In this document: one piece after another, positions 24,601-51,600 of the stretch
Layout of the letters: every line of letters begins with the position of its first letter
Numbering within the stretch: the stretch's first letter is position 1
Origin: Schmidtea polychroa
Lineage: Eukaryota
Direction: 5' to 3'
Length of the DNA: 64,000 bases
Assembly: GCA_044892525.1 (NCBI GenBank)
Contig: CM097888.1
Span: 92,628,001 to 92,692,000, forward strand
Notes under the pieces: model-generated
Seen by the model: only the letters and a program-made list of their open reading frames with translations
What the model was told of the DNA's origin: nothing
Database searches by the model: none
Made by a program: the position numbers and the translations under genes

Positions 24601-27600
24601 CTCCTTATTAACATGACCATACTGGTCACAACTCTATAAGGGTTACAGATATGGTCATTATTGCATTTAAACTACTATCACAACCTCCAATAATGTGATT
24701 TCAACATGTCTGCTGCGACACTGACACGCAGTGAGAGACGCCTCATAAAGCTCACAAATACGTTTTGCAGCTGATTTTCAGCAATGCATTCTATGCGATT
24801 AGGTCTCCGTTTGCAAGTCTCCTGAAATGCAAGGCTCGATCAATTCATATTAGCCCTTGTACCATATGAATCTCAAGGGATAAAATCTAGTGATCATGGG
24901 GCGATGCATTCAGTAATGAATGCGCCTTATTTTGATAAAGTGAACCTATTTTTGAAACTTGGCAAGTTCATGAGTAGAAGGTTCATACATGAACAATAAA
25001 CCCTAGAAAGCTCTTCAATTCATACGCAATTCAGTAACTAGGCGCCATGAACCTGACTAATGGGAAATATTTATAATATACAATCTAGAAGGATTCCGCA
25101 TGAGCAATAAGAGTAAATACGACAAATATATTATTCCCACCTCTACTCACGCTATCCAACTTCCCATTGTCCACCAACTGTTTGCAGATCTGACAATAGA
25201 TCTCATCTCGCAGCTCTGGAATTAGAATGCCATTTCCAATTATAAAATGCAATTTCTCTAAGTTTGAAGTCGGCCTCTCTTCTAATAAAGAACTCAAAGT
25301 CTTCGTATTCAGCGGATTCTCAGCATCCTTCAGATGATTGACAACTTCATCTGTGAACTTTGACTTCTTTTTCAGGGTTAAGGACACGATGTTCTTTCTG
25401 TTTGTCCTCATTGAGAGATTCTCGAATGGCATTCCATNNNNNNNNNNNNNNNNNNNNNNNNNNNNNNNNNNNNNNNNNNNNNNNNNNNNNNNNNNNNNNN
25501 NNNNNNNNNNNNNNNNNNNNNNNNNNNNNNNNNNNNNNNNNNNNNNNNNNNNNNNNNNNNNNNNNNNNNNNNNNNNNNNNNNNNNNNNNNNGCCTGGAGT
25601 GTAAAATAAATAAAGAATTACTATATTTAGAAACAGTATAAATAAAAATTACTGAAAATAAAAGATAGGTTTTATTAATTACTATTAATAGATTTAGGTA
25701 ATATATAGGAATATTTGATAATACTATTACTATATATAGTAATTATAAAATTACTATTAATATAATAAATAATTATAATGTGATATAAATACTGGTTCAA
25801 ACGAGAACCAAGGGACGATAAAAACATAGACGAGAAAATTGACGATAACTTGCGGACGAGAAAAACTGTCAAGAAAGTTCGAAAAGAAATTGAAACAATA
25901 ATTTAGAAAATTATTATCACTTTGAAAAAAAAACGAAAACGTGATTAGAGAATCACTGTGTTAATTATTTAATTTAGAAGTGCAACATTTACGATCAAAT
26001 TAGTTCATTATTGTGATTAAAGAATCACTGTGTTTATTTTAATTAATTTCAACGCAACTCCGAGTTGTTTAAATTGGATATAAACAATAGCCCACACACG
26101 AAGAAATTCCGGCTCCAATTTCAAATCAATATCAACGGAGAAATTCTACTATAAATTGATCATCAAATTAGTTGAGACGAAAAAAAAAGGAAAATCAGAA
26201 ATTAGTCGAGAGCTAAGAATATTGTCGTCACAGAATTGTAAAGAAGATTGGTCTACAACATTGTTTAAACATTCAGGTAGATTTGATTATCAAGGGATAA
26301 ACTAGTATCCCGTTAAATAGGTAAAATTAAAGCGAACACAAAGTATAGATCTTTTACTTTAGTGTTCCCTGGGAGCCTCAAAATCATTCCCTCTTACTTG
26401 CCCAACTCTTTTAGTCGAATTGCGATCGTTGTGCTACACAGGAGCCATCGATTTCTTGCAGGCTGTGGTAAACAGTAAGGATTAATAAATCCGTTTTCTT
26501 GTACTCTTTGTACATATATTATAAAGTTCGTTTTGTAAATTATAAAATACATATTTATAAACAGAGAAAGAGTTTGTTTTGTTTTTTTAACTCAGTAATT
26601 TAAATATTAAACGCGCAACCACATTAAATATAATTTATTTATATTCATTTATATCTTTTTTCATTTATTTAACCTATTGGAGTCATTTGTGTTAGGATCT
26701 ATTGTCCCCGTTTTTCGATCTTAACATTTTGGTGAGCCCGACGTGATCTAATTTACGGGGGGAATAAGAATTTTATTTATAAGAGGCAAACATCTTTTTG
26801 AATCATTGAGTTAAGAAATAGAAGGGTAATAAATTTAAGACCAGGTAATAGAAACCAGCAAATAATGGCAGAGATAAATAATTTACAAAATTTAAACGAG
26901 AATAATTTACAAAATAATAATGTGCCAGTAGCTCAACCACCAGCGGTAGATTTTATGAGATACCCAACAATTCCGATTAAACCATTTAGTGGAAATCCAG
27001 GGGAGTTTCCAGAATTTATGTCCGAATATTTTCAGTTAGCCAGAGCATTAGGATTCCCGGAACCGGTAATGATTTTGAGATTACCTTTATATTTAAAAGG
27101 GATGGCACGGGAAATATATAACGATGTTATAATAGCCGAGCATCCAGTTGAATGGAATGTATTACGATTAGCATTACAAAATAGAATATTACCGGGGGAT
27201 GCAACTAGAGTGCTGAGACAACAGTTTTATAACAGGCGACAAAATTCGGGTGAGCATGTTGGGGAATTTTCATATCAAATAATGATGTTGGCAGAGAGAG
27301 CATTTGGTAATAGGGCAGCCTGGAATGATGCAACTAGAGCATTAGTAAAAGATCAGTTTTGGTCTGGGTTATCGTCAGCAATGAGAAATGCACTCAGTTT
27401 ACACATAGGAGATAATTTAGAGGAATTAACTCGTAAAGCGTGTTTAATTGAGAGTAGCATTGAGAAGTCAAACAATTTTGCAATTAGTAGCAACAAGTCA
27501 GACATTGAGTGTTTTAATTGTCATAAAAAGGGACATATGTCAAAAGATTGTAAAAGTAGGAATAATTCTCCAGGGGACAAATTATGTACCAAGTGTGGGA

Positions 27601-30600
27601 GAAATAATCATGTGGCATCAAACTGTAGAATTTCGGACCTAAATTGTGAGAAATTTTGTGGAAAATTTGGTCATATTATGCGTTCATGTCCACAAAATCA
27701 GTTATCTAATAACAATGGTAGTGGCAACAATGGTAATAATCGATCAAAGCAGACAACGTTTGCAGTAAATTCAGACCACAAATTAACGTATTTGCAGCAG
27801 CTTGAATTAGAAATTCAAGAAGTAAGAAACAGGTTAGCAAGGCTAACAACAAATGAAACTGATGGGTACGATGAAAATGAAGGTGTTTATATGACGTCAG
27901 CCAGAAAAAGGCGAAATAAAAATAATTATGTAGAACTTGAAGTGTTGATGCTTCAAGAGAGTCCAAGGGAGGACAAAGAGGAAAAGACTATGGTCATGGA
28001 ACCAGAGGTCTGTGAGGGTTTACAGGTTTCACCCAGGAAAAATCTAGTGGCTGTGGCAATGGAGCCAGAAGCCAACAGAGAAATAGAAGGTTTACCGGTT
28101 TCACCAGTCAAAAATCGTAAGGCTATGGACATGGATCCAGTAGTTAATGAAATTGTTCCAACAGAAGTTTTGGAAAAAAGATGGGCTTCGGTCATTAAGC
28201 CGGAAGTTCTTCTAGCCACATCATCCATGCGAGGTGAGTGTGGTAGCGAACCAATAAAGGTTAGAGAAGCATCGAAAGAGGAAAGAAATCCCATCGATGA
28301 CTGTAGAAAAATACTATTACGCAAAAGCGTATGGCAAAGAGAAATGAGACAGAAATTAGAAAATATTCGTTTAAACCCTGTTAATGAGAATGAGGTTGAC
28401 AAAGTAATGGATATCATATCAGAGTTAGACAGAAATGAGGAATATTATCCAGAATTGAGAGAAATTCTGAGAAATATTGGCCTAAATTGGAAACAAAGAG
28501 AGAATCTGGAGGATTCTACCATTTTTGTATCTTTCCCAAAGGGTTGTTTTCGTAGATATACAATTAACCCAAGTGAAAAGGTAGAAGTATTGGCAAAGAG
28601 AGTTTCGGTGGTAAAACCTCAACAGAGATGCAAACTATACTTATTGGGAGAAAGATTATTAGAGGGAGAAACCTTGTTAGATTGTGGTATACTACCAGGG
28701 AAAAATATGGTTATAAAAGCAAAGTTTCACAAGGAAACTGTTACAGTAGTGGACTTGGATAATGTCCTTACTATAAGCGAGATTGAAATTGATCAATTAA
28801 ATCAAATATCAGCCGTACCACATAGATTGGGAATTGAACTGATGAAAAACCCAAGAGATGGGGAAGCCATTAAGATGATAATGGATTGGATACTGGAGTT
28901 GCGAATCCCAGTAGATACTCTTAGAGAGATAATGCCATTGGTGGTGCCTTTAGTAAAAGAGACATCACAATTCCAGACACAAGCAAAGATGCTGTTGATT
29001 AAAAATGGACATGCTATTAGACATTTGGAAGGTAGACAAGGTCCAGTGATGTTAGATATCAGGATACCCAGGAGAGGACACCTGATACAACAATTCTCAT
29101 GTTATCATAGGGTAAAGAAACTGAGAAAAAGGATATCAGAAATATTAAAAGAGTCATTCCTAATAATGATACATGGTTGTCAGGTGGATGACGACGAATT
29201 TCTAGTAGATGTTGGATGTTTTCCCAATGAGGAAACAGTTGTATTAATATTACTGGTAGAGTTTCCAGAGGATGAATGGGCAACTTTGAGATTGCCAGAT
29301 AATGCTGAAATGGAGGATGAAACAGTACATCCAGAGCGAAAACATTTAGACGGGAATACTCATCAGGAACCCGTAACTACAGTAGATTTAGATGAAGAGA
29401 TAGATAAATATCTCAAGGAACTTGATAACACTGAAGACGAGTTGGTCGAAATATTTCCTACAGAGGAAGATAATGAAGTACAATTAAATCGAGATGAAAC
29501 AAACATCGGAGCTAGTACATCGCGACAAGCCGAGCCACCAAGAGAAAGAGTGAGCCCGAAATTAGTAGAGAATAAAAAGAAAAGGGAGAGAAGGGGTAGA
29601 CCGAGGAAAAGTCAAATGAACCCACCTCCAAGAGAACTTCTAAAACCAGTTACAATACAAAATGTAACTAAGCAGGCTCTAGCAGGGATAGCTAGCCAAA
29701 TCGATAAAAGCGTTGGAGACGCTAGTGATAAAACGGAAACATGGAAAAGACTGAATCAAATCTTACGACTGATTAAGCCCGATTGGCAAATCAAGAAAGA
29801 TAAAAGTGTTAATGTTGACAAAATTGCAGAAAAAGTCAAGAAAGCTATGGAAAAGATTCCAGGAAGCACTACGGAACAGGAGATGTTCGAAATAGCAGGG
29901 CAATTCATAGATGAAGGCCTGACGAAAGGGAAAATGATAACGATTCTAGCCTTAATGTTTAAAAATGCATTGAGCATAATTAAAGATGATTCGTCGAAAA
30001 TTCCAGCAGCCATAGACAAGCTGACTGATATCATCGAAGTGAATTTCAGAACATGGATGACTGAGCACAAGTTTTGGGATATAAAAGAAACGAAAGGAAA
30101 ATATGAATTAAATGAAGAATTGTTGACAGAAAATATTTCAAGTAGTCCACGGGGAACAGGTGGATTTACTAGTTGGATGATGATGTTGTTGGTAATGATG
30201 GGAATACTGCGACAGACAAATTCCCTAACGGCATATGATTGTAGTGAACCAATACTATCGCGAATCTACTCATTAGTTGACACAGTGGAATGCAAGGAAG
30301 CATATCCAGATAAAGTTGCAAAAAGGGAAGACGTAGAATATCATGTTTATCAGCAAACAGAGTTTTACAGAACCAGAGTGAGGGAATGTCGAATACAGAG
30401 AGCGACGTTCGAATATTACTGTGGATCGAATAGTTATTCAGCATTTTTAGGAGCTAAACTCATTCCTATACCGTTAATCATCCCACCAGAGGATTGTGTA
30501 AATGCTTTCCGGTCAAAAACAGTCAAAATAGATCAGGAGGTAACAATTACCGCGGAAGAGGGGAAAAAGTTGGGTATAACTATTACCCGGGGTGGACCGA

Positions 30601-33600
30601 TAGCAGAAGATGGTTCTTGTCATGGTAGAAAGAAAGTTAGAGGTTCTAATGTAGTAAGCTATGTGGTAACAGTTGAGGACTACACAGTAGAGCTGATAGA
30701 GTACGAAGGAACTTTCGAAGTATCCACGGGAAAAATGATGTCTCATCCAGAATGCAACGTGAAATATGGTTATTGTAAAACCAGTTTAGCAGTATTAACG
30801 TACCAATCAATGAGAGATTTTTGTGATTTAGGATACCTGAAAAAGGTAGTATTTTCAAGGCTAGATGGGAAGAGTTTTACGTCTCAGGATTCACAACAAA
30901 GTGGTTGGGGAGACAAGATAACTCACAAAACGAAAAAGGAAGTAGTACCGGAGAAAAGCACAGCAGTAGTATTAGTCTCCAAGGACCCAACAGATGCAAT
31001 TCGTTTAGTCAGAAAGAAACAGACAACGAAATGTGGTGTACCAATATTTGAAACCAACTACAAGGGAATATACTTAGCATACAAGTATGTTCCAGCAGCA
31101 GAATCATTGCATCTATCAGATATTAAAATAGCCAAGTATATCAATAATAAGATTGATTTCTTGTATCATGATCTGCAGAAACAATTATTAGATGTCTATC
31201 AGGAAGTGATCCTGAACGACTGTCGTTTGAATCGGGAAATAATACGGAATAGATTAGCAATATCTATAGCTAATCCGGATCTAATAATGCCAATGTTGAC
31301 AGAGGAAGGAACATTCGGCAGAATTTTGGGCGAAGCAATTTATAGCTATCAGTGCAAAGCAATAGAGGTGGAAATTACCAAATATGATCGATGTACATTG
31401 GAGTTACCAGTGAAATATAAAGGAAAATTGAGATTCCTGATGCCAGTATCACACCAGCTATTAAAGGAGGATACCTCACCATTGACAGCAATTTGCAATC
31501 CAGCAATGTCACCATTATACAAAATTAACAATATTTGGATTTCGTTGCCAGATAGAAAACCGCCTTCAAAACCAGTTGAAGTGCTTCAAGCGACAAAGTT
31601 AGAAACTAAAATGGAGTTTCAACCATTAAACGAGATGTCAAAAGGAGGAGTATATACTCCGGAAGATATTGAAGAAGCTCGGAGAGCAATCGTATTTCCC
31701 CAAATCAGAAATAGGGGAGTGACGGAAATAATAACAAGAATCTATCAATCATATGATGGAAAACCGGACTATAACTTATTATTTGGACCAGAACATTATA
31801 AACAAGCTGCATCCAATGTAATACGGAAAATCTGGGGTAGATTTACAAGCTTTGGCATTTTTGTAGCAGGATGTTCAGGTATATATGCAATAGTGATGAT
31901 ATTGAAAATAATCATATCGCAATTATTTTCTACCTATAGTATCTTCAAGATCGGGGGATGGTCTTGGAAGTTGCTACTAGGAATGTGTCCAGTTTGTGCA
32001 GATTTTGCAGTATTTCATCATCATAATAAAGAGATTAAAAGAATGAAGAGACAAACTATAAAGAAGCATGAGTTAATAATGTATGAACCTAGTCATCGAG
32101 ACGATGACAATTCTGACGAGGGAGGTAACCTAGAGGGCTATGAGACTTCAGACAACACCTCAATAAAACCAGACAACAAAAAACCGAAATTTCAAAATTT
32201 TGAAAACAGTACTTTACAACAGTACCCTGTTAAAGCAAAAAGGAGGAAACGGCAGGAGTGGCCCGTAAATTACTTGTCTCCATACGAGGGTAGAAAAAAG
32301 ATAATACCAGAACGAGTTGAAGAGGAAATGTTAAAGAGGCTCGAGTTTAGAACGAATACAGATATATCACCATCTACCTCATACCCAACGTATAAAATGA
32401 AGTTCGAGACAATGCCACCCTTGGGTACATCAGTATTTGAGATGGTACCGAAATATCCATTTAGCACGTTGGAACGGCTAAAGGAAGAGTATAAAGATGA
32501 AATAAAATCAGAAAATGACAAAGATAGTGATGATCAACAAAAGTTCAGAGACAATATTCGAGGAATCTCAACAATATTAATGGTCAATATGGGTAAAAAG
32601 ACTCATAAACCTACGATTAAACTAAAAGTTAACAGGCATACGGTACATGCCATTATTGATTCAGGATCAGATTTGACATTGATCGAAGCAAATTTATTAA
32701 ATGAAAAAGAATTACAAGCAATAGTGCCGACATTACTTGTTGCATCGGGAGCAAATGGACAACCTATCAATGTTATCGGAACATTAGATTGCGAATTAAG
32801 GTTGTGTGATCAAAAATTTAGACACGATATCAAGGTCACTAGACAATGTATGGCAGAATGTATCGTGGGAATGGATATATTGAAAAAGTTAAAAGATATT
32901 GTATTTGATTGTGCAACAGGTGAATTAGTGAAAATGACTGGTAGAAAACGGAAAACCTACAGTGTGGATGTAGTGTTTTTGGATAGAACGGTGACAATAC
33001 CACCGAGGACCGAAACAGTTTGTTTCGTAGCAACACACCAAGAGGTGGAAGGAGATGTTATTTTCGAACCCAGTGAGCAGTTCGTAAATAGGTATAAAAC
33101 GCCTATGGTGCAAAACTTGGCAACAGTACGGGGAGGAAGGATCCCGATTAGATTAACAAATCTAGCGAGCAAATCATTGAGATTATACCCAGAGACTAGA
33201 GTGGGTAAAGTGATACAACTTTCTAACATGCAGAAAGAGCATGAATCGATATTAGCAGTAGAAGAGGATGAACGAGATCCTGATATCGAATATTACGACG
33301 CACCGAGCTGCGATAGTAAAGCTTTATCTAGAAAAGAAAATATCAGAGTCAATCAATTATTACGTAAATATGACCAAGTTTTCGCAAAACACGAATATGA
33401 CTTAGGGCAAGTTAATATTCTAGAGCATGAGATTAAATTAACAGAAAATAAACCGATAAAAATTCGCCCGTACAGAATACCTCAAAGCATACAAGGGTCC
33501 GTTGACAAACAAATTAATGCAAAAATATAATATAATCAGACCCAGTAAATCTCCATATTCCTCACCTTTGGTGGTTGTAGCTAAAAGAGACGGCTCAGTC

Positions 33601-36600
33601 AGATTATGTAATGACTATAGGAAATTAAATGAACAAACAGTTAGTGATAATCACCCGCTACCTTTGCTAGACTACATTTATGATAAAATGAAAAATTCAA
33701 AGTTGTTTACTGTGATGGATGCACAGAAAGGTTTTTATCAAATAAAGATGAGCGAAGACTCAATTCCTATGACAGGATTTTCTACAAGTAGTGATCATTT
33801 TGAATACTTAGTAATGCCGTTTGGATTAAAAGGAGCCCCTCCAACTTTTCAGAGAGCAATGAATATCATGTTGATGGATGCACATCACGCAATGGTATAT
33901 ATAGACGATATTATCATCTTCTCGGAAGATTTAGATAAACATTTGGAACATCTAGAAGACATTTTCAAAAGATTGATTATGGCAAACCTGAAAGTAAAGC
34001 CAAGCAAATGCAAATGGGCAGAATCGGAAGTGATTTACGTGGGGCATGTAATATCACACGATTGCGTAAGACCAGATCCGGCGAACACGGATAAAGTAAA
34101 GAATTTCCCACAACCAGTGAATGTAAAACAAATCAAAGGATTTTTAGGGTTGACGGGATACTATCGGAAATTTATACGAAATTTTTCAGCAATAGCTTTT
34201 CCTCTAACTACCTTAGAAAAGAAAGGTATAAAATTTTTATGGGGAGAAGATCAGCAACAGGCATTCGATAAGTTAAAAGATGCACTATGCAAACCACCAA
34301 TTCTACGATTTCCAGATTTTAAAAGACAATTCATGGTGATGACCGATGCATGCACAAGAGGTATAGGTGCCGTTTTGGGACAGAAAGACGAAATTGGCGA
34401 TGAGTACGCAGTAGCATATGCAAGTCGTGGATTGAAGCCACACGAAAAAAGTTATGCTGTAATAGAATTGGAAGCATTAGCATTAGTATTTGCAGTGGAA
34501 AAATTTAGTCATTACCTATGGGGCAGAAAGATAATTTTCTATACGGATCATAGACCATTGCAATGGCTGTTAAAACATAGGGATGAAGCATCAAAATTAG
34601 TAAGATGGGCATTGAGATTACAGCCATATAATATCGAAATAGTATATCGTAAAGGTAAAGCTAATGGTAATGCAGATGCATTATCACGAATGGAACAAGA
34701 GCCTGAGTTAGAAGATATAAAGGAAGGAAGATTAGAAGGAACAATCTTCATGCTAACAAGAGAGGCTAACACTTTGAGCGATATAGTAGAAGCGCAAAAA
34801 AATGATGACGAAATCAATATGATCAGACAAGCTATAGAAGCAAAGGCCATACCAAATGAATTTCAGAAATATTGGGAGAGACATAAAGATAAATTCATAT
34901 TGGAAGAAGGGCTAATCAAATACGTTGAATCAAGGGATAATGTAATATTAGTACCAAAGAAATACAGAGAATCACTATTATTACAATACCACGACGGAGC
35001 ACTGGGAGGACATCTCTCAGTTAGACATACACTGTCAAGATTAAAAATGAAATACTTCTGGCCAGATATGAAAGATGATGTTAAAAAGTGGTGTCAATCA
35101 TGTAAGATATGTATAACCAGAAGGAACACAGGCAGGAAACCACATGTTCCATTGAAACCAATGCCAGTACCGTCCTCGCCAATGGAGATGACTGCTATGG
35201 ACGTACTAGGGCCGTTTAAAGAATCAAAAATGGGAAATAAATTTATCATAGTATTTTGCGATTACTTAACCAAGTGGCCCGAAGCATTCCCAATTCCGAA
35301 TCATAAGGCAGACACAATTGCCAGAATCTTTGTAGAACAAATAGTATTCAGATATGGTGTTCCAACAAAATTACTTACCGACAGAGGAAAGGATTTCATG
35401 AGTAATCTGTTAAAAAGTATAAATGATTATTTTGGTATTTTAAAATTAAATACCTCACCATACCATCCACAGACGGATGGATTGGTAGAAAGGTTCAATG
35501 GAACCTTGGCAAACATGTTATCATCATACGTAAACTCAGGTCAGACGGACTGGGATGTACACATACCATCGTGTTTGTTTGCGTACAGAAATGCTGTTCA
35601 TTCAGTAACAGGAGAAACACCTTTCTATCTGATGTATTTAAGGCATAACAAGATGCCAGTAGATCTTATATTTTATCCGAAAGCTTCACAGAATTGTGAT
35701 GAGGAAAATTACTTATTCGAGATGAGAGAGAGAATGCAAGAAGCCTGGGAAAAAGCAGGTTTGAACATTCGTTATAACCAAGAAACGATGAAGGAATATC
35801 ATGATCGTAAAGCGAAGGATCATGGGTTTTTGGTAGGAGATTATGTCATGTTAGAAGGACATTACAACAAAAAAGGTTTATCTCCAAAATTAATGAGAAA
35901 TTACAAAGGGCCGTATCAAATTTTGAAAGTCACAGAAACAAATTTAGTCTTGCAGTTAGTGACAAACAGAAAAGCAGAACCGATAATGGTTCATGCAAAC
36001 AGATGTAAAAAGATAGCCCCACCAGAAAAGGAGAAACCAAAATCAGAAATCGATGAATTCGAAATAGATAAGAAATCGAAAAAGAAAACGTTGGAATCAT
36101 ACAAAAGTATCCTAAAAGGACAACCGGAACGATACCCTTTACGATCTCGGCAAGTACCGAAAACAGTTACATTTCTAGCAGTGATTAGTTGTGTTATGAT
36201 GATTGGACAAGCATTCGAGGTATTCACACCTAAAGCCAGTCAACATCCAGATATCGAATATCAACGAACAGATAGAGCGTTCAGATTTCATTTAACGAAT
36301 ATACAATGGCATAGATATGATTTATATTTGGTAGCTGCTGAAAGAGGGATATCATTTCACTTGAATACATGGGATCGAGTAAAAGTAATAGAAGGACTTA
36401 TGCCGAATACAAGTTATCTATTAGAAATCAAAACATTTTTTGCAGATCCAAACGTTTTTGCAGACGGAGGAGATTGTGTAGATAAAGCAGCATGGATTTT
36501 GAAGACTGCAAAATTTACCAAAAAAGTAGAGATTTCATATCTCGGGCAGATAGTAAGATTTACTCATCCACGGTGGAAAAGAAATGACACATCTTCCACT

Positions 36601-39600
36601 CACGATTGGAGGACGAATAATAAAATTGCGCTAATCGTCATATTAGAAAACGACCAGCGAGTCGAGAGATTAGTGCTCAACCATGCGTATCTAAGTAAAA
36701 GATGGAAAATCAAACCAGATACCGTGATAAAAGCGAATATTTCGTATTTGGAATTTACGGAGAGAACCGGTTGGTATACAATATATCAAGAAATAGTAAA
36801 TCTAATACCTCCCACAAAGGGAGAACTAACTAGCAAAGAAGGAAAGGCTAGATTAGTAAATATTCCTGGTTGTAAAGGAATAAATGCTTTAGATTGGTTT
36901 AGTATTAGAAAGGTAGCGAGTGTAAAACAGCCCCGCATAACTAAAATAATTAATAATTGTAGTTGTCAAAATACGTTAAAGGGGGCAGCGAGGGAGAAAA
37001 CGCCAACATGGCTATTGTTAATTATGATAGGGGGAGTAATTTGCATGATTTTAATTTTGCTCTTAACCACCCTATGGATGTTTAGATTAAATATACGAGA
37101 TATGCGTTATTGGGAAAATATTTACGAAACCGAGGTATAGGGGGAAAGTCTCACCATATACTAGGAAGTGTAAATATATATAGTTATTTATTTTATATAT
37201 ATGTTATTTATATTAGTATGTAGACTAATGTGGGCTCAAATGAGCATTGGTAAAATCAGACATCAGCGTATGTCGACTTTGGTTACCCTGCGAGGGTCTA
37301 TCACGAAAGTGATAAAAGCTGTTAATTATCTTATTTTTAGAAAAATGAATTATAGCAGAGAATCAAAGCCGCCAGTCAAGGCAAATCGACGACACCCATT
37401 AGCAACGTACAATTCCCAAACTCGAGTGGAAACTGAAGTGTATAGCACCTATAAAGAAGAGTATGTATATCGGTTCATCGGAACCACGGTAGCAGCAAAG
37501 ATGAATCACCTCACCTCAAACTATTGGTATTATCCCAGGAGAGTGGATATTCCAAATGACTTCAAATTTCCAGGAGGGCCTCGAAGGCAAATGATGGTAA
37601 CGGTTATAAATAACCAAGGTAGATTAAAATTGGCGGAACTATGTAGAGAGTATGGTTCAAGTCCGAAAGTAGAAAACATTTGGATCCATGCGATCAATAG
37701 GCCATTTACTGTGTTTATGGCGGGTTTAGAGCTACCTGTTGAATTAGAAAAACAGTGTACTCTGGAGATATACCACGCTGATGGACGAGAACGGAATATT
37801 ATGATCCAGGCAGCGGCGGTGGACACCATAATCGTAGTGGAAATCTTAGACTTCAGGAAACCATACTCTATAGTTAGCAAAAACGAGCCAACTTGGATTT
37901 ATAATGTAAATGAAGCTGATATACAGCAGTGTAAATCATTCGTGAGGAAGAAGTTAACCAAAGCCGAGGAGGATGAGGCTACAATTTTCATATCGGCAGG
38001 TTTTGCCAAATCCCGAATCGAATTGAAGGAGACAATTATCCAAATCGCAATTATGGATATGAGAGGAAATAATTTATTGAGTGCGATAGTGACTCCCAGA
38101 GATCCAGTAAAACATTACCAAACGCACCAATATAAGTTAAAAGAACCCGACATTAGAGGAAATCTCGATGAAGACGATTGTCATCATCTGATAAGAAAGA
38201 TCTGCGATAAGAAAATACTGGTAGGTATTTTACTTAAAGATCTGATCTCGGTAGCCAATCTACCAGTGCAGCGAATTTTGGGTATTCGTGACCTTTCGGC
38301 AAATAAACTATTGGAAACCAGAGGAGTCCCAAAGATCCATGGTCATTACAGTTTGGGATTCCTGACAAAAACTTTCCTGCGTACGGTTCCCGGAGAACCA
38401 AGGAATTTAGTGGTCACCAATGAGGCACTGGCAATACGTGCTGTTTATTTACATATCAGAAACGAATGGTTAGACCATATCACGATACCTCAGGAGGAAT
38501 TCATTTCCGCAACTACAGCAGCGATAGTTGAACAGGAAATGACGCAGAAGAGGAGATTACCTGAGCAACCATCTACATCAGAGCAACCCCAGCCCAAGAG
38601 GAAATCACCTGTGGATCTACCACCGCCTCCAGCCATATCTATTGGAGAAGAAGATGAATATGAAACATGTGCTAGTGAAATAGAGACAGCAAAATCACCT
38701 AAACAACCATCAGGAGCTGCCTATCAGCCAAAGGATAAATCGGATAATGCGGTCAGAAAAGAAAATCCAGAAGGAGGCAAGGTGAAAAAGATGTTAAAGA
38801 AAATGTTACCCATTAAAAGAGACAAATCGAAGTTAAAGTTGAAGAAAGTTGTTAAACCGTCGGAAGGAACGACAAAAGATACACCCAGCGGTTCGGAAGA
38901 TAGGACTATTAAACCTCAAAAGATATTCAGCGAACCAGATGATGACATTATGGAAGTTGCCTTTCAACCTCCGGTTAAGGAGATGCAGGAAGCAATAAAG
39001 GTTAAATCTGAACCTGTGGTAAGGCAGAAATTGTTAAAGATTGCCAAGGAGAATATCATCAAGAAACCAGTTTCGGTTGATGTGGACGGTTTCGAACCAA
39101 TGTGGTACAAACGTCCGGATAGTAAATGGAAACCCAGAGCGAAGGAGTATGACTGCCAACCAGTCACGAGAATGGCAGTCAATAATAACCAAAAATATGA
39201 TGTTTATGACGTAGACGGGATCCCTTACGTGGTGTCTACAGTCATATTAACAAGTGCTCTGGATGGTAAGCCTTTAGCAGTGAGTTTTGAGCCAGATGTC
39301 TTACAGAAGAGGAAGAAGAAGTTGTTGCAGCAATACGTCATTGCGAATAGCTACAGCACAAAGGAAGTGCACCTTTACAAAGTTCCAGACCCAGATCCCG
39401 ATGATCTGGATATCTAACCCAAGAGCGTTGCCACCCAACATGTGTCGTCAAATTCAAATGTGTACAAAATAACTTAACTATTATTTGAGTTGTGTTTTTC
39501 AGTGTTCTGACATTCATTATTTGTGATCTGAAACATTTATATTTTTTGTGTTTTGTCTTATTTGATTAATTTTTATGTTTTATTGTAATACTGTTTACGA

Positions 39601-42600
39601 AAAGCCTTTCCTTAGTCTTGGTTTTGTCTTGTTTTCGAGACGAAAATCTTTTAGGGGGTAAGACTTGTTAGGGATAGGCCTGGGGCCTGGAGTGTAAAAT
39701 AAATAAAGAATTACTATATTTAGAAACAGTATAAATAAAAATTACTGAAAATAAAAGATAGGTTTTATTAATTACTATTAATAGATTTAGGTAATATATA
39801 GGAATATTTGATAATACTATTACTATATATAGTAATTATAAAATTACTATTAATATAATAAATAATTATAATGTGATATAAATACTGGTTCAAACGAGAA
39901 CCAAGGGACGATAAAAACATAGACGAGAAAATTGACGATAACTTGCGGACGAGAAAAACTGTCAAGAAAGTTCGAAAAGAAATTGAAACAATAATTTAGA
40001 AAATTATTATCACTTTGAAAAAAAAACGAAAACGTGATTAGAGAATCACTGTGTTAATTATTTAATTTAGAAGTGCAACATTTACGATCAAATTAGTTCA
40101 TTATTGTGATTAAAGAATCACTGTGTTTATTTTAATTAATTTCAACGCAACTCCGAGTTGTTTAAATTGGATATAAACAATAGCCCACACACGAAGAAAT
40201 TCCGGCTCCAATTTCAAATCAATATCAACGGAGAAATTCTACTATAAATTGATCATCAAATTAGTTGAGACGAAAAAAAAAGGAAAATCAGAAATTAGTC
40301 GAGAGCTAAGAATATTGTCGTCACAGAATTGTAAAGAAGATTGGTCTACAACATTGTTTAAACATTCAGGTAGATTTGATTATCAAGGGATAAACTAGTA
40401 TCCCGTTAAATAGGTAAAATTAAAGCGAACACAAAGTATAGATCTTTTACTTTAGTGTTCCCTGGGAGCCTCAAAATCATTCCCTCTTACTTGCCCAACT
40501 CTTTTAGTCGAATTGCGATCGTTGTGCTACACAGGAGCCATCGATTTCTTGCAGGCTGTGGTAAACAGTAAGGATTAATAAATCCGTTTTCTTGTACTCT
40601 TTGTACATATATTATAAAGTTCGTTTTGTAAATTATAAAATACATATTTATAAACAGAGAAAGAGTTTGTTTTGTTTTTTTAACTCAGTAATTTAAATAT
40701 TAAACGCGCAACCACATTAAATATAATTTATTTATATTCATTTATATCTTTTTTCATTTATTTAACCTATTGGAGTCATTTGTGTTAGGATCTATTGTCC
40801 CCGTTNNNNNNNNNNNNNNNNNNNNNNNNNNNNNNNNNNNNNNNNNNNNNNNNNNNNNNNNNNNNNNNNNNNNNNNNNNNNNNNNNNNNNNNNNNNNNNN
40901 NNNNNNNNNNNNNNNNNNNNNNNNNNNNNNNNNNNNNNNNNNNNNNNNNNNNNNNNNNNNNNNNNNNNNNNNNNNNNNNNNNNNNNNNNNNNNNNNNNNN
41001 NNNNNNNNNNNNNNNNNNNNNNNNNNNNNNNNNNNNNNNNNNNNNNNNNNNNNNNNNNNNNNNNNNNNNNNNNNNNNNNNNNNNNNNNNNNNNNNNNNNN
41101 NNNNNNNNNNNNNNNNNNNNNNNNNNNNNNNNNNNNNNNNNNNNNNNNNNNNNNNNNNNNNNNNNNNNNNNNNNNNNNNNNNNNNNNNNNNNNNNNNNNN
41201 NNNNNNNNNNNNNNNNNNNNNNNNNNNNNNNNNNNNNNNNNNNNNNNNNNNNNNNNNNNNNNNNNNNNNNNNNNNNNNNNNNNNNNNNNNNNNNNNNNNN
41301 NNNNNNNNNNNNNNNNNNNNNNNNNNNNNNNNNNNNNNNNNNNNNNNNNNNNNNNNNNNNNNNNNNNNNNNNNNNNNNNNNNNNNNNNNNNNNNNNNNNN
41401 NNNNNNNNNNNNNNNNNNNNNNNNNNNNNNNNNNNNNNNNNNCAGCTTCCTCTGCAGCTTTCAAAATGTCTTGCTTATTGAACTGTCGGCCAAGAGATTG
41501 ATATATTTTTGTCATTATAGGAACTGAATTCGCTTGAGATGTCTGACTCTGGTTCACCAAAGGTTCAGGTAGATCTTTCATAAACCTCAGAATGGCTATC
41601 CACACTGCCAGTGCTGACTAGAGAAGAAGATATTAAAACAATCATATTACTGGACTGCAATATATATACTATTTGATGGTTGGGGTTCGAATGAAACAGC
41701 AAAGGTTTCCTTAAAGGTTTTCGTGAGAAATTCGGATCAGAATCCTTCTGGAAATAAGTGGCAGCAAATTTTGTGAATGTGAATTCTGAGACGTCCTCAT
41801 CGAGAATGTTGACCAAATAATCAGGCATCGTTGTAGCAAATACCGAGCTGACATCATTGAGAGCGTTCATCCGTGACATCTCCAGATCCTGGAATGCTCT
41901 CGGTGCATGGGACAATGAATTTGAGAGAGATTTCACGCTGTAGCCATCAATCGAGCCGAAAATCTCATCAAGCTAAAATAAGAAAAGAAATCAAATTTCT
42001 GTGGAAATTTCATTCTAGTTCAATTAGGCGTTGTCAGTAATTTGATTCAGTGTCCATGAATTATTAATGAAATCAAGCTGAATTATGAATGAGCAAGAGT
42101 TGTTTTACCATCTCTGATTCATCCACTGGCTGGTTGCGCCTCCTCTCTGCCTCTGCAATCCTCTGTTTCATGTTCCTATTGTCCTTGATTTGCTGCTGGG
42201 CCTCTGCTAGTGACTGGCTGTGGATTGCATTGAGCCGCACCTGAATTGCAATATACAGCATCATCACTCGGCATCCTTGCTAGAACATTTCATAGCTACT
42301 CAAGCATTACAAGAAACCAGGAAAAGAGAAAGTACGCCAACAAAAGAAATAAAATCACCGAATTTTTATTTCAAATATCAAATGTTAAATGAAATCATTT
42401 ATTTATTAGTGAGACTGGAGGGGAAGCTTTATGAATTTGGTTGTACTTTCTGTTATTGTTAGGCACTTAATGCCCCTATATAACTGAGAGCCCCCCCCCC
42501 CACCCTCCCCTCCTCCTCCGTTCCTTATATCAATGCTACATGGGAAATTATCAGTAGAGAATCCTTTGATAGAAATCTGTAACGGAGAAAATGTTTTTAT

Positions 42601-45600: not shown

Positions 45601-48600
45601 TATGTAGTGTGAATGGGTATGGTGTGAATGGGTAAGGTGAATAGGTAAGGGGAATAGGTAAGGTGAATAGGTAAGGTGTGAATGGGTATGGTGTGAATGG
45701 GTATGGTGTGAATGGGTAAGGTGTGAATGGGTATGGTGTGAATGGGTAAGGTGTGAATGGGTAAGGTGTGAATGGGTAAGGTGTGAATGGGTAAGGTGTG
45801 AGCAGGTAAGGATTGAATATTTTAAGTGATTTATTAAAATGATTTAAAATCAATTTTGAAAGTAAATAATTAGAATTATGAATAACTTTTTGTTAAATAA
45901 ATGTGAAATAGTAAAATAATGAATTCTTGTGATAAATGACAGTGATCAACAGCCCAAATGTATCAGTGATGAAATCAGTCAATTAGAACTCATTTTCTAT
46001 GCCATTAACAATGTTGTTTAGCTCTAGATTTTGTGATACAGTAACTTTTACTTTTCATATACATTGGGTATATTTTTGTTTCAGTTGTACTTGGTATAGC
46101 AGTCCTACACGAATTTCCTGCCGGCGTTATGACATTTACTGATTGGATATCTTCCTCTCTTATCAATCAGTCACAGACAGGCTTATGAATTGTCTATGAG
46201 TTTTCGTGCCAGTTAGCATTCATTATCTCCAAATGCCTCGAAAGTGTGTAAATGGCACTGATAACAGTTATTATGTGTGCGATAAAGTGAAATTTGCCAG
46301 ACAGAAACGTTCTCTAACTCCAGTAATTAGGAATGCTTATCACTGTTATTTTGGGTGCAAAATTGAAAACCAAGATAAAAGCTGGCGCTACATATTTATT
46401 GCAATACTTTTGCTTTTAACCTCCACAACTGGCTTAATCAATGAGTTCAATGCCTTTGCTGTTCATATGATAAGGAGAGACCCAACCAATCATGTCACAG
46501 ACTGCTATTTTTATATCGTGTCATACCTACAGCACGGAATGTCCAAGAAGAAAGAATTTATTTATTTATTTTTTTCAATCAAAAATATTTCAGTCAAAAT
46601 GTTAGCCAATGGAAACATTCAAAAAAAGTTAGATTTAACGAAGCAATTCTCATTATAAACAGACGGCCAACAATACACTAAAGAAGAGATCAATGAAATC
46701 AGTGCCGGATTTAGATCTGATAAGGCCCTAGGCTATTTGAAATATGGGGCCCTTTATAAGACCAGATATAATATCTCAGCGCCAAATATGATTTTTGGAT
46801 ACCTAGAGAGATAAACTGAAATACAATTAAGAATTATAGATAGTGAAATAATAAATCTTTAATTTAAAATCATTTTAATTCATAACAAACTTAAAAATGC
46901 AAATTCTGATAAAAAGAAGCAAAAGATCTTTTAAAAAAACAATATACAAAGGCTTATTATCTAATCTCTTGAAACATGCTATGAGAATTAAGGAATTATA
47001 TTAAACTGAAATATTTTCTTTCTTGCCTTTGCCTGAGAAAAGTCACTGAGGACATCATCGAATGATAAACTGTGTAGTTTGTCACTTTCTATACACATGA
47101 GAGTAAGCGAACATAATTTATCTTGAGTCATTGTTGTTCTAAATTCAGAAGCTGTAGAAATTTATCAGTATTCTCGGTTGTCATAATTATGGCTAAACAA
47201 ACCCTAGACACAATAGCGCTTTGCCTTTGTTCTTCGAATTGACGTCCTAAAAGAATTGGATGAAGAGTATAGGACGTTTCAAACATGCGGCAGTAGGAAA
47301 AATAATGCTGCAGTATATTTAGGTCGACATGACAATTTCTCATTCGGACACTTTTTGGGGCCCTAATAAAGTAAGGGCCCTAGGCTATAGCCTGTGTAGC
47401 CTATACGTAAATCCTACACTAAATGAAATTATCAATATGATTTGTTGTTATTGACCTTGAGAATAACTTTTAAAAATTAAAAAATAATAATTTAAAATAA
47501 TATAGAAAAACAATATAATTTTAAAAGATCAAAAGGATTTAAAAATCAAAATAGAAACATTTTTAATAATATTTAAATTGAGTAAATAAATAGTTATTGG
47601 CAACTATATTTTATAAATATTTTAAGATAGTATTTATTAAAATTGGTTTCTATGAGCTAATTATAGAAGCCCTTTAAAAATTTTTCTAATTGAGTCGTTT
47701 TGAATTTTAAAGGATATTTAATTATAATAACATTTTTAAATNNNNNNNNNNNNNNNNNNNNNNNNNNNNNNNNNNNNNNNNNNNNNNNNNNNNNNNNNNN
47801 NNNNNNNNNNNNNNNNNNNNNNNNNNNNNNNNNNNNNNNNNNNNNNNNNNNNNNNNNNNNNNNNNNNNNNNNNNNNNNNNNNNNNNNNNNNNNNNNNNNN
47901 NNNNNNNNNNNNNNNNNNNNNNNNNNNNNNNNNNNNNNNNNNNNNNNNNNNNNNNNNNNNNNNNNNNNNNNNNNNNNNNNNNNNNNNNNNNNNNNNNNNN
48001 NNNNNNNNNNNNNNNNNNNNNNNNNNNNNNNNNNNCCTTTTGCTGCAAATAATGTATTTAATGAAAGAATTTTCGACTATACGATAGTCCTTGTCAATCT
48101 CCTGGAATTTAGCAATGTTCTTCTTCAAAATACCCTTCAATCTTTCTTTTATTTCCTTTCTCTTAATTCTCATTGGTTGTAAATATACTGAATTGTTTTA
48201 CTAAAAACTTTTAAAATTTTTTTATAATTTTTATTTTTTACATTTAAAATTTCAAAATGACACAAACTAAAATTTTTAAATTTTTTACAGCTTCTATAAT
48301 TAGCTTCTAGAAGCCTAATAAAATATTTGAAAATATTCTAAATAAAGCCTCCAATAACTACTTATATATGCTATTTAAATATTTCAATAAATGTGTCAAT
48401 TTTGATTTTCAAACCCTATTTTTTAAAATTTTTTTCTATATTATTCTAATTATTACTTTTTAATTTATTCTTATTTTTTTAATTTCTTTGTATATTGTCA
48501 GTTATTCTCAAAGTCAATGACAACAGATCAAATTCATGATTTCATTGATTTCTTCTTTAGTGTTGATCTTTGGCTGTCTGTTTATTATGAGAATTGCTTC

Positions 48601-51600
48601 TTTGATTCTGACATTTTTCTTTTGGATGTTTCCATTAGCTATGATTTCTATTGAAATATTTTTTCTTTCCTCTGTTGGCTGACACTGCCGGAGATGTCTG
48701 CCCAACGAGGATGTTCCACCAGGATCTAGATGTTCTTTAACTCTTTGGTGCAATGTCCTGAGGGTACTTCCAATGTAGATTTCATTGCATACATTGCACG
48801 TGATGCAATAGACGATGTTTTTTCTAAAGCACATATCTTTCGGTGTCTGGCAGTTTTTCATTGTGCAATTGTTTTCTCTATTTATGTTGCCTGCCAGAGC
48901 CCTTCTCAATGTCCAAGATTTATGTGCTATCCGAATTGGAAGACCGGTACGTTTAAGTTCTTTCAGGATCTTGAAGTCGAGTATGTCACTGATGAATGGG
49001 ATATTCAGATAGAAATATTTCTGATTCTTTTGTGTTAATTCCCTAGATCTTCTTGGGGTAGAATTCATTTTTTCAATGTCCTCACTTTGGTATCCGTTTC
49101 GTTGTAGGATTTTATTGAAATTTGATTGCTCTTTAAAGTTTTCGTTTTTCTCCGTGCATCGATTGGCTATTCTTCGTTTCTCGTTTCTTATGACATGTAC
49201 TTTCTGTAAGTATGGAAGCGCTGATCTTTGGTGCATAAATATTTCTTTGCGAGCTGGTTTTCTGTAGAACCCGTATGTTGGAGTATTTTCTTCTATTTTG
49301 ATTCTCAAATCCAATAAATTGAGGGATCCATCTTCTTCCGGATATTCGATTTCGAACTTAATATCTTGATGAGCCGCATTGAATGAATGAAATATTTCCT
49401 CCGCTTCTTTTCTGTTTTTGGTCAAGATGAAGATATCATCTACATATCTTGCATAGAAACCGATGGGTTGTATGGTCCTCAGTGTCTGTCGTTCGAGGTT
49501 ATCCATAAAGATGATTGCTAGCAGTCCTGATATGCTAGAACCCATAGGCAGACCTTTAACTTGTTTATAGATATTTTGTTCAAAGGTAAAATAGGTGTTC
49601 TCGAGGATAACAGTAAGTAGTTTGGTGATATTCTCGATATTCATTTCCTTTATTAACAAGTTGCTTTCTCTTAATTTCTTTTCTAAACATTGAATAGCCT
49701 CTTTTGGTTCCATAGATGTGTATAGTGATACGACATCAAGACTAAATGGGTATTGGAATTCTCTATGACAAGTCATGTTATTATTTAGTCTTGTCATGAG
49801 GCAGTCGCTGCTTTGAAGATGGTGTGGTATCGTGTCCAATAAAGGTTTCAAGATCTTTGCAAGGAGCCAACTTGTTTTAGTTGTTGGTCCATTTTTGTTG
49901 GACACTATAGGTCTAATTTTGATACCAGGACCCTCTTTGTGAGTTTTAATTAGGTGGTAGAAGTTAGGAAGATCAGAATTTTTTGTGACGAAGCTGTTGG
50001 TTATTCTGTTGTTGAGCCTCATTTCCAAAGCTATGGCTTTCCATACTTTGTTGATCTTCATTTCGATGGTGTTTGGTGACATGCGGCTGACTTTCTTGTA
50101 TGTTTCGATGTTGCCGAGGTGTTCGTAACCAGCTTCACAGTAACGATTCTTCTCTATAATGCAAAATTCTCCCCCCTTGTCACTTGGTAAGTAAACGTAC
50201 GGTTTCTTTTTAAGGGATTTTAATATTGCCTGTTCGTCTTTCGTTAGGTTTGAGAGATATGGTTTTCTTCTTTCCTTCTCAACTAACTCCATGATTTTGT
50301 GACAGACCTTTGAGAGTGTTGAATCTAATTCTGCATCAGGATTTGGTTGATAGAGTTTATCTGTGTTTATGTATACTACTCTCATTTTCATGAGATATTG
50401 TATTGTTCTATTTGATCTGGTACGCAATGCGACTGACAATATACAAAGAAATTAAAAAAATAAGAATAAATTAAAAAGTAATAATTAGAATAATATAGAA
50501 AAAAAAATTTTAAAAAATAGGGTTTGAAAATCAAAATTGACACATTTATTGAAATATTTAAATAGCATATATAAGTAGTTATTGGAGGCTTTATTTAAAA
50601 TATTTTCAAATATTTTATTAGGCTTCTAGAAGCTAATTATAGAAGCTGTAAAAAATTTAAAAATTTTAGTTTGTGTCATTTTGAAATTTTAAATGTAAAA
50701 AATAAAAATTATAAAAAAATTTTAAAAGTTTTTAGTAAAACAATTCAGTATATTTACAACCAATGAGAATTAAGAGAAAGGAAATAAAAGAAAGATTGAA
50801 GGGTATTTTGAAGAAGAACATTGCTAAATTCCAGGAGATTGACAAGGACTATCGTATAGTCGAAAATTCTTTCATTAAATACATTATTTGCAGCAAAANN
50901 NNNNNNNNNNNNNNNNNNNNNNNNNNNNNNNNNNNNNNNNNNNNNNNNNNNNNNNNNNNNNNNNNNNNNNNNNNNNNNNNNNNNNNNNNNNNNNNNNNNN
51001 NNNNNNNNNNNNNNNNNNNNNNNNNNNNNNNNNNNNNNNNNNNNNNNNNNNNNNNNNNNNNNNNNNNNNNNNNNNNNNNNNNNNNNNNNNNNNNNNNNCT
51101 TTCAAAAAGAATTTTAAGAAATTGGCTTTTAGTTGTTTGAATTAATTCCGTCAGATCGGCATTGAAGAAATCTCGGTTTTTCTCCAGGAATCCCTCAATC
51201 TGATAATGGACGACTCCCGCAAAATGCTCTATTCCAAATATCTAGAATATACGATTCTCTCGACCCGATCAGTAAATAAAATTTACTTTGACAATGTCTG
51301 CCTTTTGCTTGATGAACCTTGAATGCTTGGAGCAAGTATTGACGAGTTTATTGAGAAGCGAGTGATCTGTGCCTTTGGGGAATCGGCTTTCCTCATCGAT
51401 CAGCGCGAGAATGTTGCAATTCCTCACACCGATCAAGTCCAATGTTTCCTGATTGTCTGTGAATGCGATATGTTGCCAGTCGATCAGTTCTGCTGCGTAT
51501 TCCTCTTGCTCCATCTTGAATATGTGCCGAACGAAGAACTGCTGGAGATTCTCATTTGCGTAATTTATACAAAGCTGTTCGTAGCTGTTGTTGTCGAAAT

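Follow-up and report, generated by a model that had tools for sequence, protein, structure and literature searches.

The closest described relatives of the element treated here are planarian retroelements. The giant gypsy elements Burro/GYPSM1 have long terminal repeats (LTRs) and one polyprotein with a Gag carrying three CCHC knuckles, ubiquitin-like and Bcl-2-like domains, an Env between Gag and protease, and then reverse transcriptase (RT), RNase H and integrase (PMC6431247), and Burro1 RNA is present in tissues after piwi loss (PMC8532177). The errantiviruses Smed_errantivirus_1-6 share the GAG-ENV-POL gene order and an Env of the HSV/gB (glycoprotein B) type, and the discussion of that paper states that the entry route of gB-type errantiviruses is unknown (PMC13524379). 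The window analysed in this work, a stretch of 64,000 nucleotides of Schmidtea polychroa (contig CM097888.1, positions 92,628,001 to 92,692,000, forward strand), contains at about 25.6-40.8 kb a unit of about 15 kb that is a Burro-like Gag-Env-Pol LTR retroelement of the Ty3/gypsy group with a gB-type Env, an additional member of this already published element type. Its integrase frame continues into a second predicted membrane protein of type I, which differs from Env and ends in a class I PDZ-binding pattern. To our knowledge, gypsy elements are thought to carry one envelope protein at most. The available part of the Burro description names no second membrane protein, FN3 (fibronectin type III) or PDZ motif (PMC6431247); the words fibronectin, PDZ, attachment and accessory do not occur in the main text on the errantiviruses, nor fibronectin or fn3 in its supplements, figures lying outside this scope (PMC13524379). 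A literature search with Repbase reports and figures outside its scope likewise returned no printed description of such a protein.

The extension closes a frame of 1226 aa (33460-37140, plus strand) that encodes RT, RNase H and integrase, and it comprises 336 codons from the motif RYPLRSR to the stop codon TAG at 37138-37140. Its parts are the following.

36130-36150, plus strand: basic motif RYPLRSR at the integrase end, from sequence
36160-36213, plus strand: predicted internal signal sequence, from hydropathy, with a predicted cut after ...IGQA
36217-36510, plus strand: ectodomain domain 1, likely a degenerate FN3, with LMPNTSY at 36397-36417
36511-36816, plus strand: ectodomain domain 2, beta-rich, weakly indicated as possibly FN3/Ig-like
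36817-37008, plus strand: stalk with three cysteines, the fastest-changing part
37009-37077, plus strand: transmembrane helix, hydropathy peak 3.06
37078-37140, plus strand: predicted cytoplasmic tail, ending WENIYETEV and stop, with the class I PDZ-binding pattern at 37129-37137
37138-37152, plus strand: purine run overlapping the polyprotein stop, like the 3' polypurine tract (PPT), a possible internal PPT

Topology was read from hydropathy and from small residues at positions -3 and -1. In the whole frame only the signal-like segment (peak Kyte-Doolittle value 1.91) and the helix exceed a hydropathy of 1.6; an arginine, a basic residue on the tail side, follows the helix directly, the tail has 20 aa, and the ectodomain of about 260 aa carries four N-glycosylation sequons. 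The signal is identical at 18 of 20 residues between subfamilies A and B, described below, and has counterparts in all families of the genome. An earlier note on this DNA had proposed that the integrase frame runs on into such a protein, with a transmembrane helix and a short tail, and had inferred that the element would then encode two distinct surface proteins; as predictions both agree with our results, the two proteins being the gB-type Env and the second membrane protein. We regard it as very probable that the architecture of signal, ectodomain, single helix and PDZ-type tail is real. The motif ahead of it, present as RYPLRS in families A-E and as LRS or TRS variants in family F and the Burro1-like family, resembles what we take to be the chromatin-binding motif of foamy viruses, and is likely a chromatin tether of the integrase or the n-region of the signal. 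An arginine anchor is confirmed for foamy Gag (PMC6042332).

At the DNA level a search of the genome (781 Mb, four large contigs) brought up 162 candidates, 40 of which were scored, each at 89-100% identity, and a protein search revealed a second subfamily (B) at 61-63% identity to that of the window (A). Between A and B, the proportion of synonymous differences (pS 0.45-0.68) is above that of nonsynonymous ones (pN 0.05-0.30) along the extension, and the ratio of nonsynonymous to synonymous rates (dN/dS) is about 0.03 for the signal, 0.10-0.56 for the ectodomain, 0.30 for the helix and 0.08 for the tail, values obtained between the window and one B copy, and rough because dS is near saturation. 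Within A, where 27 of 30 copies were used, the signal has a dN/dS of 0.14, the ectodomain one of 0.21 and the helix one of 0.34. The stretch starting RD(M/I) shows seven silent changes and one conservative change between the subfamilies. Together, the rates between A and B and those within A establish that the extension is a coding region under purifying selection. The ectodomain changes much faster than the integrase, with 48-74% against 92-97% identity between A and B.

A constant feature is the very end of the protein. Scoring the class I PDZ pattern as S/T-x-V/I/L at the end of the frame, we found ETEV in 28 of the 30 best-scoring A copies, the other two ending ENGV, and S/T-x-V/I in all 15 B copies; 43 of 45 copies thus have the motif, compared with a background of 23 of 766 frame ends (3.0%). 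Other families were traced through Env- or Bcl-2-bearing loci of the genome, and every one of them has a signal-like segment, ectodomain, helix and tail behind the integrase. The end is ETRL in family C (3/3 copies), ETWV in D (11/12), ETFV in E (5/5), SSLV or STLV in F (6/9) and ATLV in the Burro1-like family (3/4), copies without the pattern being those with stops or frame shifts, so that five other families share the class I end despite different ectodomains. These counts leave out L071 (no match), L076 (decayed, stop lost), L079 (the same copy as L032), the partial or decayed L111-L115 and L117, and the duplicates L083, L084 and L116. Positions 0 and -2 are held, and position -1 and the rest of the tail vary, which fits the class I rule S/T-X-hydrophobic (PMC4810129). 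A class I PDZ pattern at this end, as the earlier note proposed, is supported. A tyrosine lies four to six residues from the end in families A-F. In family C (L081), PPSY stands just ahead of ETRL, presumably a PPxY late-domain or WW-ligand pattern.

The earlier note drew two further likenesses from this tail. The EPIYA motif reads E-P-I-Y-A or nearly so, and Src-family kinases phosphorylate it; ENIYE has only I-Y in common with it, without P and A, a tyrosine four to six residues from the end occurs in none of the seven PDZ-ending outside relatives introduced below, and the tyrosine contexts of relatives read SYYE, IVYEE or QYTM or contain no tyrosine, so the label 'EPIYA-like' is not supported. 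HTLV-1 (type 1 human T-cell leukaemia virus) Tax does end in ETEV, a shared class I pattern that implies no kinship with the element. Its 'TEV' is described as a class I motif (PMC4810129).

Outside this genome, an integrase search returned 12 close relatives (E 1e-137 or better), followed by a gap down to ordinary gypsy proteins. A helix follows the integrase in nine of the 12, and seven of these nine have a class I end (STLV, STLV, ETSL, TTAV, GTVV, ETIV and ETLV); one relative is cut short after the signal and first domain. Of 108 other gypsy Pol proteins, by comparison, two have the helix, four the pattern and one both. In a midpoint-rooted integrase tree of 56 tips, which includes a sample of 36 from the 108 others, eight loci of the genome group with the 12 outside proteins to the exclusion of all other tips (support 0.995), and within this clade the motif is kept down to 48% identity with the window integrase. 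A signal-like segment ending in small residues is found in every genome family and most outside relatives, and the ectodomain is built from one to three FN3-like units, except that P0022 and the Burro1-like family have unrelated cysteine-rich units. The constant part is thus the signal, the helix and the PDZ-type end, and the outside part is exchangeable; the module as predicted is old and clade-wide. As a separate observation, P0014, P0017, P0018 and P0019 have extra aspartic-protease-like domains, which in P0018 and P0019 come after the integrase and ahead of the second membrane protein; they are a possible release mechanism for the integrase.

Motif and profile evidence makes domain 1 of the window ectodomain a likely FN3. 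It has the E-F strand signature L-x-P-x-T-x-Y as LMPNTSY, with alternating hydrophobic residues, which is the basis on which the earlier note called it FN3-like, and it gives no Pfam fn3 match at the curated cut-off, relatives reaching E 0.13-0.7. When a profile of A and B was run against 1.84 billion proteins, the best match was a five-FN3 protein (E 3e-6, at the L-x-P-x-T-x-Y strand); the second, the repeat protein P0009, was judged a chance match. Aligned by hhalign with 48 host FN3 domains, domain 1 gave E 4e-4 over 18 columns, equalled by 0 of 25 shuffles. A profile of 24 repeat units taken from other members of the clade matched host FN3 with a probability of 80% (E 1.3e-5, 64 columns, 0 of 30 shuffles) and placed domain 1 above 499 of 500 shuffles for the window and subfamily A and above 500 of 500 for B. 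In Atlas, the ten best family matches all belong to the FN3 clan (0.87-0.89), which is a lead only, as are the FN3 rows of domain 2 (0.86-0.89). The suggested second degenerate FN3 fared less well: domain 2 was equalled by 16 of 25 shuffles with the host FN3 profile and by 1 of 30 with the clade profile (E 0.044), and an FN3/Ig-like nature is weakly indicated. A structural model of the family C ectodomain (predicted local distance difference test, pLDDT, 41 overall and 50-67 in part of domains 2-3) returned mostly tandem FN3 receptors in Foldseek, with a best E of 2e-3.

Host FN3 receptors and adhesion proteins (cytokine receptors, receptor phosphatases, neogenin) have the same succession of signal, FN3-like units, stalk, helix and short PDZ-ended tail; the window ectodomain differs from them in being too degenerate for Pfam, in having no specific donor and in being encoded inside a retroelement polyprotein. 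Direct homologue searches with the extension gave 0 of 1071 and 0 of 3190 candidates, sequence searches of the PDB gave no match, and none of the 143 Pfam fn3 matches over the genome was recognised at element copies. With the profile of the 48 host FN3 domains, the ectodomain scored no better than shuffles (38 of 500). The idea of a captured receptor is thus not supported: no donor gene was found by these searches, and the module appears to be old and shared by the clade.

These results suggest a function, which we put forward tentatively and as a little short of an even call: the second protein may be an accessory envelope protein, whose PDZ tail acts at junctions and whose FN3-type ectodomain aids attachment for the gB-type Env. 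PDZ binding as a rule requires a free carboxyl end. Env has a central place in the polyprotein, its helix being followed by the protease, and so has no free C-terminus unless cut; since only the last protein has one without proteolysis, the second protein would supply the tail, and T-E-V stands directly before the stop at this predicted free end. The internal signal would re-open translocation after the integrase, signal peptidase would cut after GQA, as for the signal before Env, and the integrase would be freed from its left-over anchor by the element protease or a host intramembrane protease. The tail would then bind scaffolds of the Dlg/Lin-7 type and hold element membrane proteins at cell junctions or contact sites, where the ectodomain would assist attachment to the neighbouring cell; single-frame copies would make the protein in equal numbers with Gag and Env. 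Class I PDZ domains are encoded by the host genome; one of them is close to Dlg/PSD-95 PDZ3, and a Lin-7-like one was recognised by eye. Complex prediction for the Dlg-like PDZ3 with the last 30 residues gave 0.29 against a mark of 0.34, a value that speaks neither for nor against binding. Junction or polarity targeting, as the earlier note had it, would be a reasonable role, and the elements likely steer the membrane site of assembly or spread.

Entry by two components is known from herpesviruses, where gB works with gD/gH/gL, and from paramyxoviruses, where F works with H/HN/G. The element would likewise combine a fusion protein with a second surface glycoprotein, an analogy only, no homology having been found. 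Possible, though doubtful in our view, is the wider proposal that the whole clade has a two-glycoprotein system, in which a gB-type fusogen encoded mid-polyprotein would be paired with a terminal FN3 attachment protein whose PDZ tail would build a junction-anchored synapse for spread from cell to cell, e.g. into planarian stem cells, and in which the second protein would be the missing attachment partner of gB-type errantiviruses. A precedent is HTLV-1 Env, likewise a membrane protein of a retroelement that has a class I PDZ motif and a proposed role at cell-cell contacts: its motif binds DLG1, governs trafficking, acts at cell contacts and aids fusion (PMC4810129). HTLV-1 has the motif on the fusion protein, the element has it on a protein of its own that follows the integrase, without sequence kinship and with binding predicted; the second protein would supply the trafficking tail that HTLV-1 has on Env.

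Several results weigh against the accessory envelope role. The protein is known here from its sequence, its expression, cleavage, presence in particles and binding all being predictions, and the hydrophobic core of its signal is modest (1.91). Within A, dN/dS of the tail is 0.85, from 10 variants only (2 silent, 8 replacement), and the last tail codons adjoin the conserved purine run, so that constraint on the DNA may contribute. In two outside relatives the helix is present but the end is not of class I (GYSK, DEIV), two of the 12 have no such second protein, two F-type copies end TMST, and the counts do not represent independent events, since members of the clade have a common ancestry. The ectodomain varies, as would suit a spacer or decoy no less than a receptor binder. 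As for the FN3 fold, the 24 repeat units were chosen by eye on an L-x5-Y motif, which favours an FN3 match; the AlphaFold model of the A/B ectodomain has pLDDT 32 and its Foldseek list is noise, so that it gives no usable view of a seven-stranded beta-sandwich; the family C model, Ig/FN3-like in domains 2-3, reaches only Z 5.3-6.7 in VIA, with mixed Ig-like sandwiches; and the A/B ectodomain does not align with that of family C (BLASTP E 0.6, hhalign 0.3%).

Some of these points suit other explanations. An unlikely but serious one is that the protein is a modulator of the host cell, a receptor mimic in the membrane of the producer cell that ties up PDZ scaffolds and alters polarity, survival or proliferation, as Tax and Ad9 E4-ORF1 do, with no part in entry. 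The constant tail beside an exchangeable ectodomain would fit this, as would the longer tails of relatives with tyrosines and in one case PPSY, and the clade has other cargo for host control, namely Bcl-2-like, ubiquitin-like, ankyrin, MATH/TRAF and BIR domains (PMC6431247); a soluble protein would suffice for such a task, however, and in this clade purifying selection has preserved the signal, a glycosylatable ectodomain and the helix, all within a structural polyprotein. The rapid change of the ectodomain relative to the integrase, its differences between co-resident families and the mosaics of subfamily B, which pair an A-type Env with a different second protein, could also point to a superinfection block or immune decoy, in which the ectodomain would occupy, at the cell surface, the receptor used by the element itself or a ligand of host defence, and the PDZ tail would only retain it there. 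We judge this improbable, as dN/dS is below 1 in every part, no host ligand or donor was found in our searches, and retroviral interference is normally exerted by Env itself. Less probable again is that the signal is unused and the integrase keeps the entire extension as a tail, cytoplasmic or anchored in the membrane, by which capsids or integration complexes are positioned; the only moderately hydrophobic signal core and the occurrence of FN3 domains inside cells would allow it, but the signal-like segment recurs with its small residues across genome families and most outside relatives, and sequons and Thr-rich stalks are typical of outside domains. Hardly credible, finally, is that the extension is a functionless passenger whose ETEV is kept only through overlap with a DNA signal, an internal PPT. 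The last codons are indeed low in silent variation and a conserved purine run lies at the stop in subfamilies A and B, but family D ends ETWV with no purine run after its stop, the pattern recurs on unrelated DNA across the clade, and selection acts on the whole extension, so this explanation is already largely refuted.

The remaining parts of the element are the following.

25592-26726, plus strand: 5' LTR, left edge under N, terminus ...TAACA, same sequence as the 3' LTR
26730-26747, plus strand: primer-binding-site-like sequence (TGG...) after the 5' LTR, from sequence
26802-33530, plus strand: first polyprotein part, with Gag (3 CCHC), putative ubiquitin-like and Bcl-2-like regions, then internal signal, Env and helix, and protease
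within 26802-33530, plus strand: likely dUTPase-like region, by the layout of the available description only (PMC6431247)
30249-31946, plus strand: Env, a fusion glycoprotein of class III (gB/Monjiviricetes-type), internal to the polyprotein, its helix followed by the protease
33580-36039, plus strand: RT, RNase H and integrase (H2C2, core, GPY-type C-terminus), from Pfam
37174-39417, plus strand: open reading frame 3 (ORF3), 747 codons between stops, a likely DEDDh exonuclease in degenerate form with an acidic/basic region
39653-40805, plus strand: PPT and 3' LTR, LTR start TGTTAG at 39666, right edge under N

The insertion is very young, since the two LTRs are identical at 1121 of 1121 comparable bases. 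Pfam finds zf-CCHC, PF24664 (E 5e-81) and RVP in the frame 26802-33530, which places the class III Env in frame between Gag and protease; the window copy is broken near 33.5 kb, and 10 of the 30 best-scoring copies have a single frame of 3516 aa. The Gag of the window copy (26802-27760) is about 70 codons shorter in the zinc-knuckle region than that of L071. Matches to ubiquitin (E 0.12 in the window element, 6e-4 in family C) and to Bcl-2 (E 0.02, seen in family C only) all fall short of cut-offs, and multi-copy Bcl-2 matches in short frames (L131-L133) were set aside, those elements having no RT, integrase or Env match. Ankyrin, MATH/TRAF and BIR domains give no Pfam match in the window element and are present in another family of the genome.

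The purine run at the stop, with the TGTAAA motif that follows (37138-37175), resembles the 3' PPT and LTR start, and may be an internal PPT or a relic predating the addition of ORF3. ORF3 is common to families A, B, D and F, tblastn connecting that of the window with those of D and F, and that of the window has no Pfam match. In family E (L107:1898-3388) acidic motifs like those that we take to be typical of DEDDh exonucleases were seen by eye; the window family has S-A-G at the first of them, so its ORF3 is likely an inactive nuclease. Copies of subfamily B (L071/L072, L128-L130) are mosaics with an Env 92-94% and an RT 99-100% identical to those of the window, but starting at the RNase H end their silent sites are close to saturation, a pattern which indicates that integrase and second protein were swapped as one block. 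At G000:C3:106.49-107.23 Mb (L077), dozens of tandem units spaced at about 2.87-2.88 kb hold residues 145-322 of the second membrane protein at 86-88% identity and make up, by their sequence, a satellite array derived from the 3' part of the element. Elsewhere in the window, 604-bp inverted repeats (99%) around a minus-strand frame of 645 codons (48514-50451) delimit a likely DNA transposon at 47838-51098.

Among the published elements, Burro proper exceeds 30 kb and has ankyrin, MATH/TRAF and BIR domains (PMC6431247), whereas the window element, of about 15 kb, is without them; the Burro1-like family of this genome falls into the same integrase clade and also has the helix and an ATLV end. 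That family has in addition a TRAF-like frame (zinc fingers and MATH) behind the polyprotein and a further accessory frame with a predicted helix (L089:3360-4385; L087:7484-8947). Of the six errantiviruses, Smed_errantivirus_4 has the Env closest to that of the window, roughly two-thirds identical by eye and with no exact match listed, and Smed_errantivirus_3 resembles family F (PMC13524379). Smed_errantivirus_4 was considered as a candidate for subfamily B and rejected, given the much higher Env identity of B to the window.

Under the accessory envelope reading, a second surface protein with a PDZ end kept across the clade is a concrete candidate for the question of how gB-type elements enter cells, and it can be tested in a model animal by RNA interference. 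It would connect the most abundant repeats of the genome with the junction and polarity scaffolds of a tissue rich in stem cells. Use of the sole free C-terminus by a trafficking tail is also a possible reason for the odd Gag-Env-Pol order of these elements.

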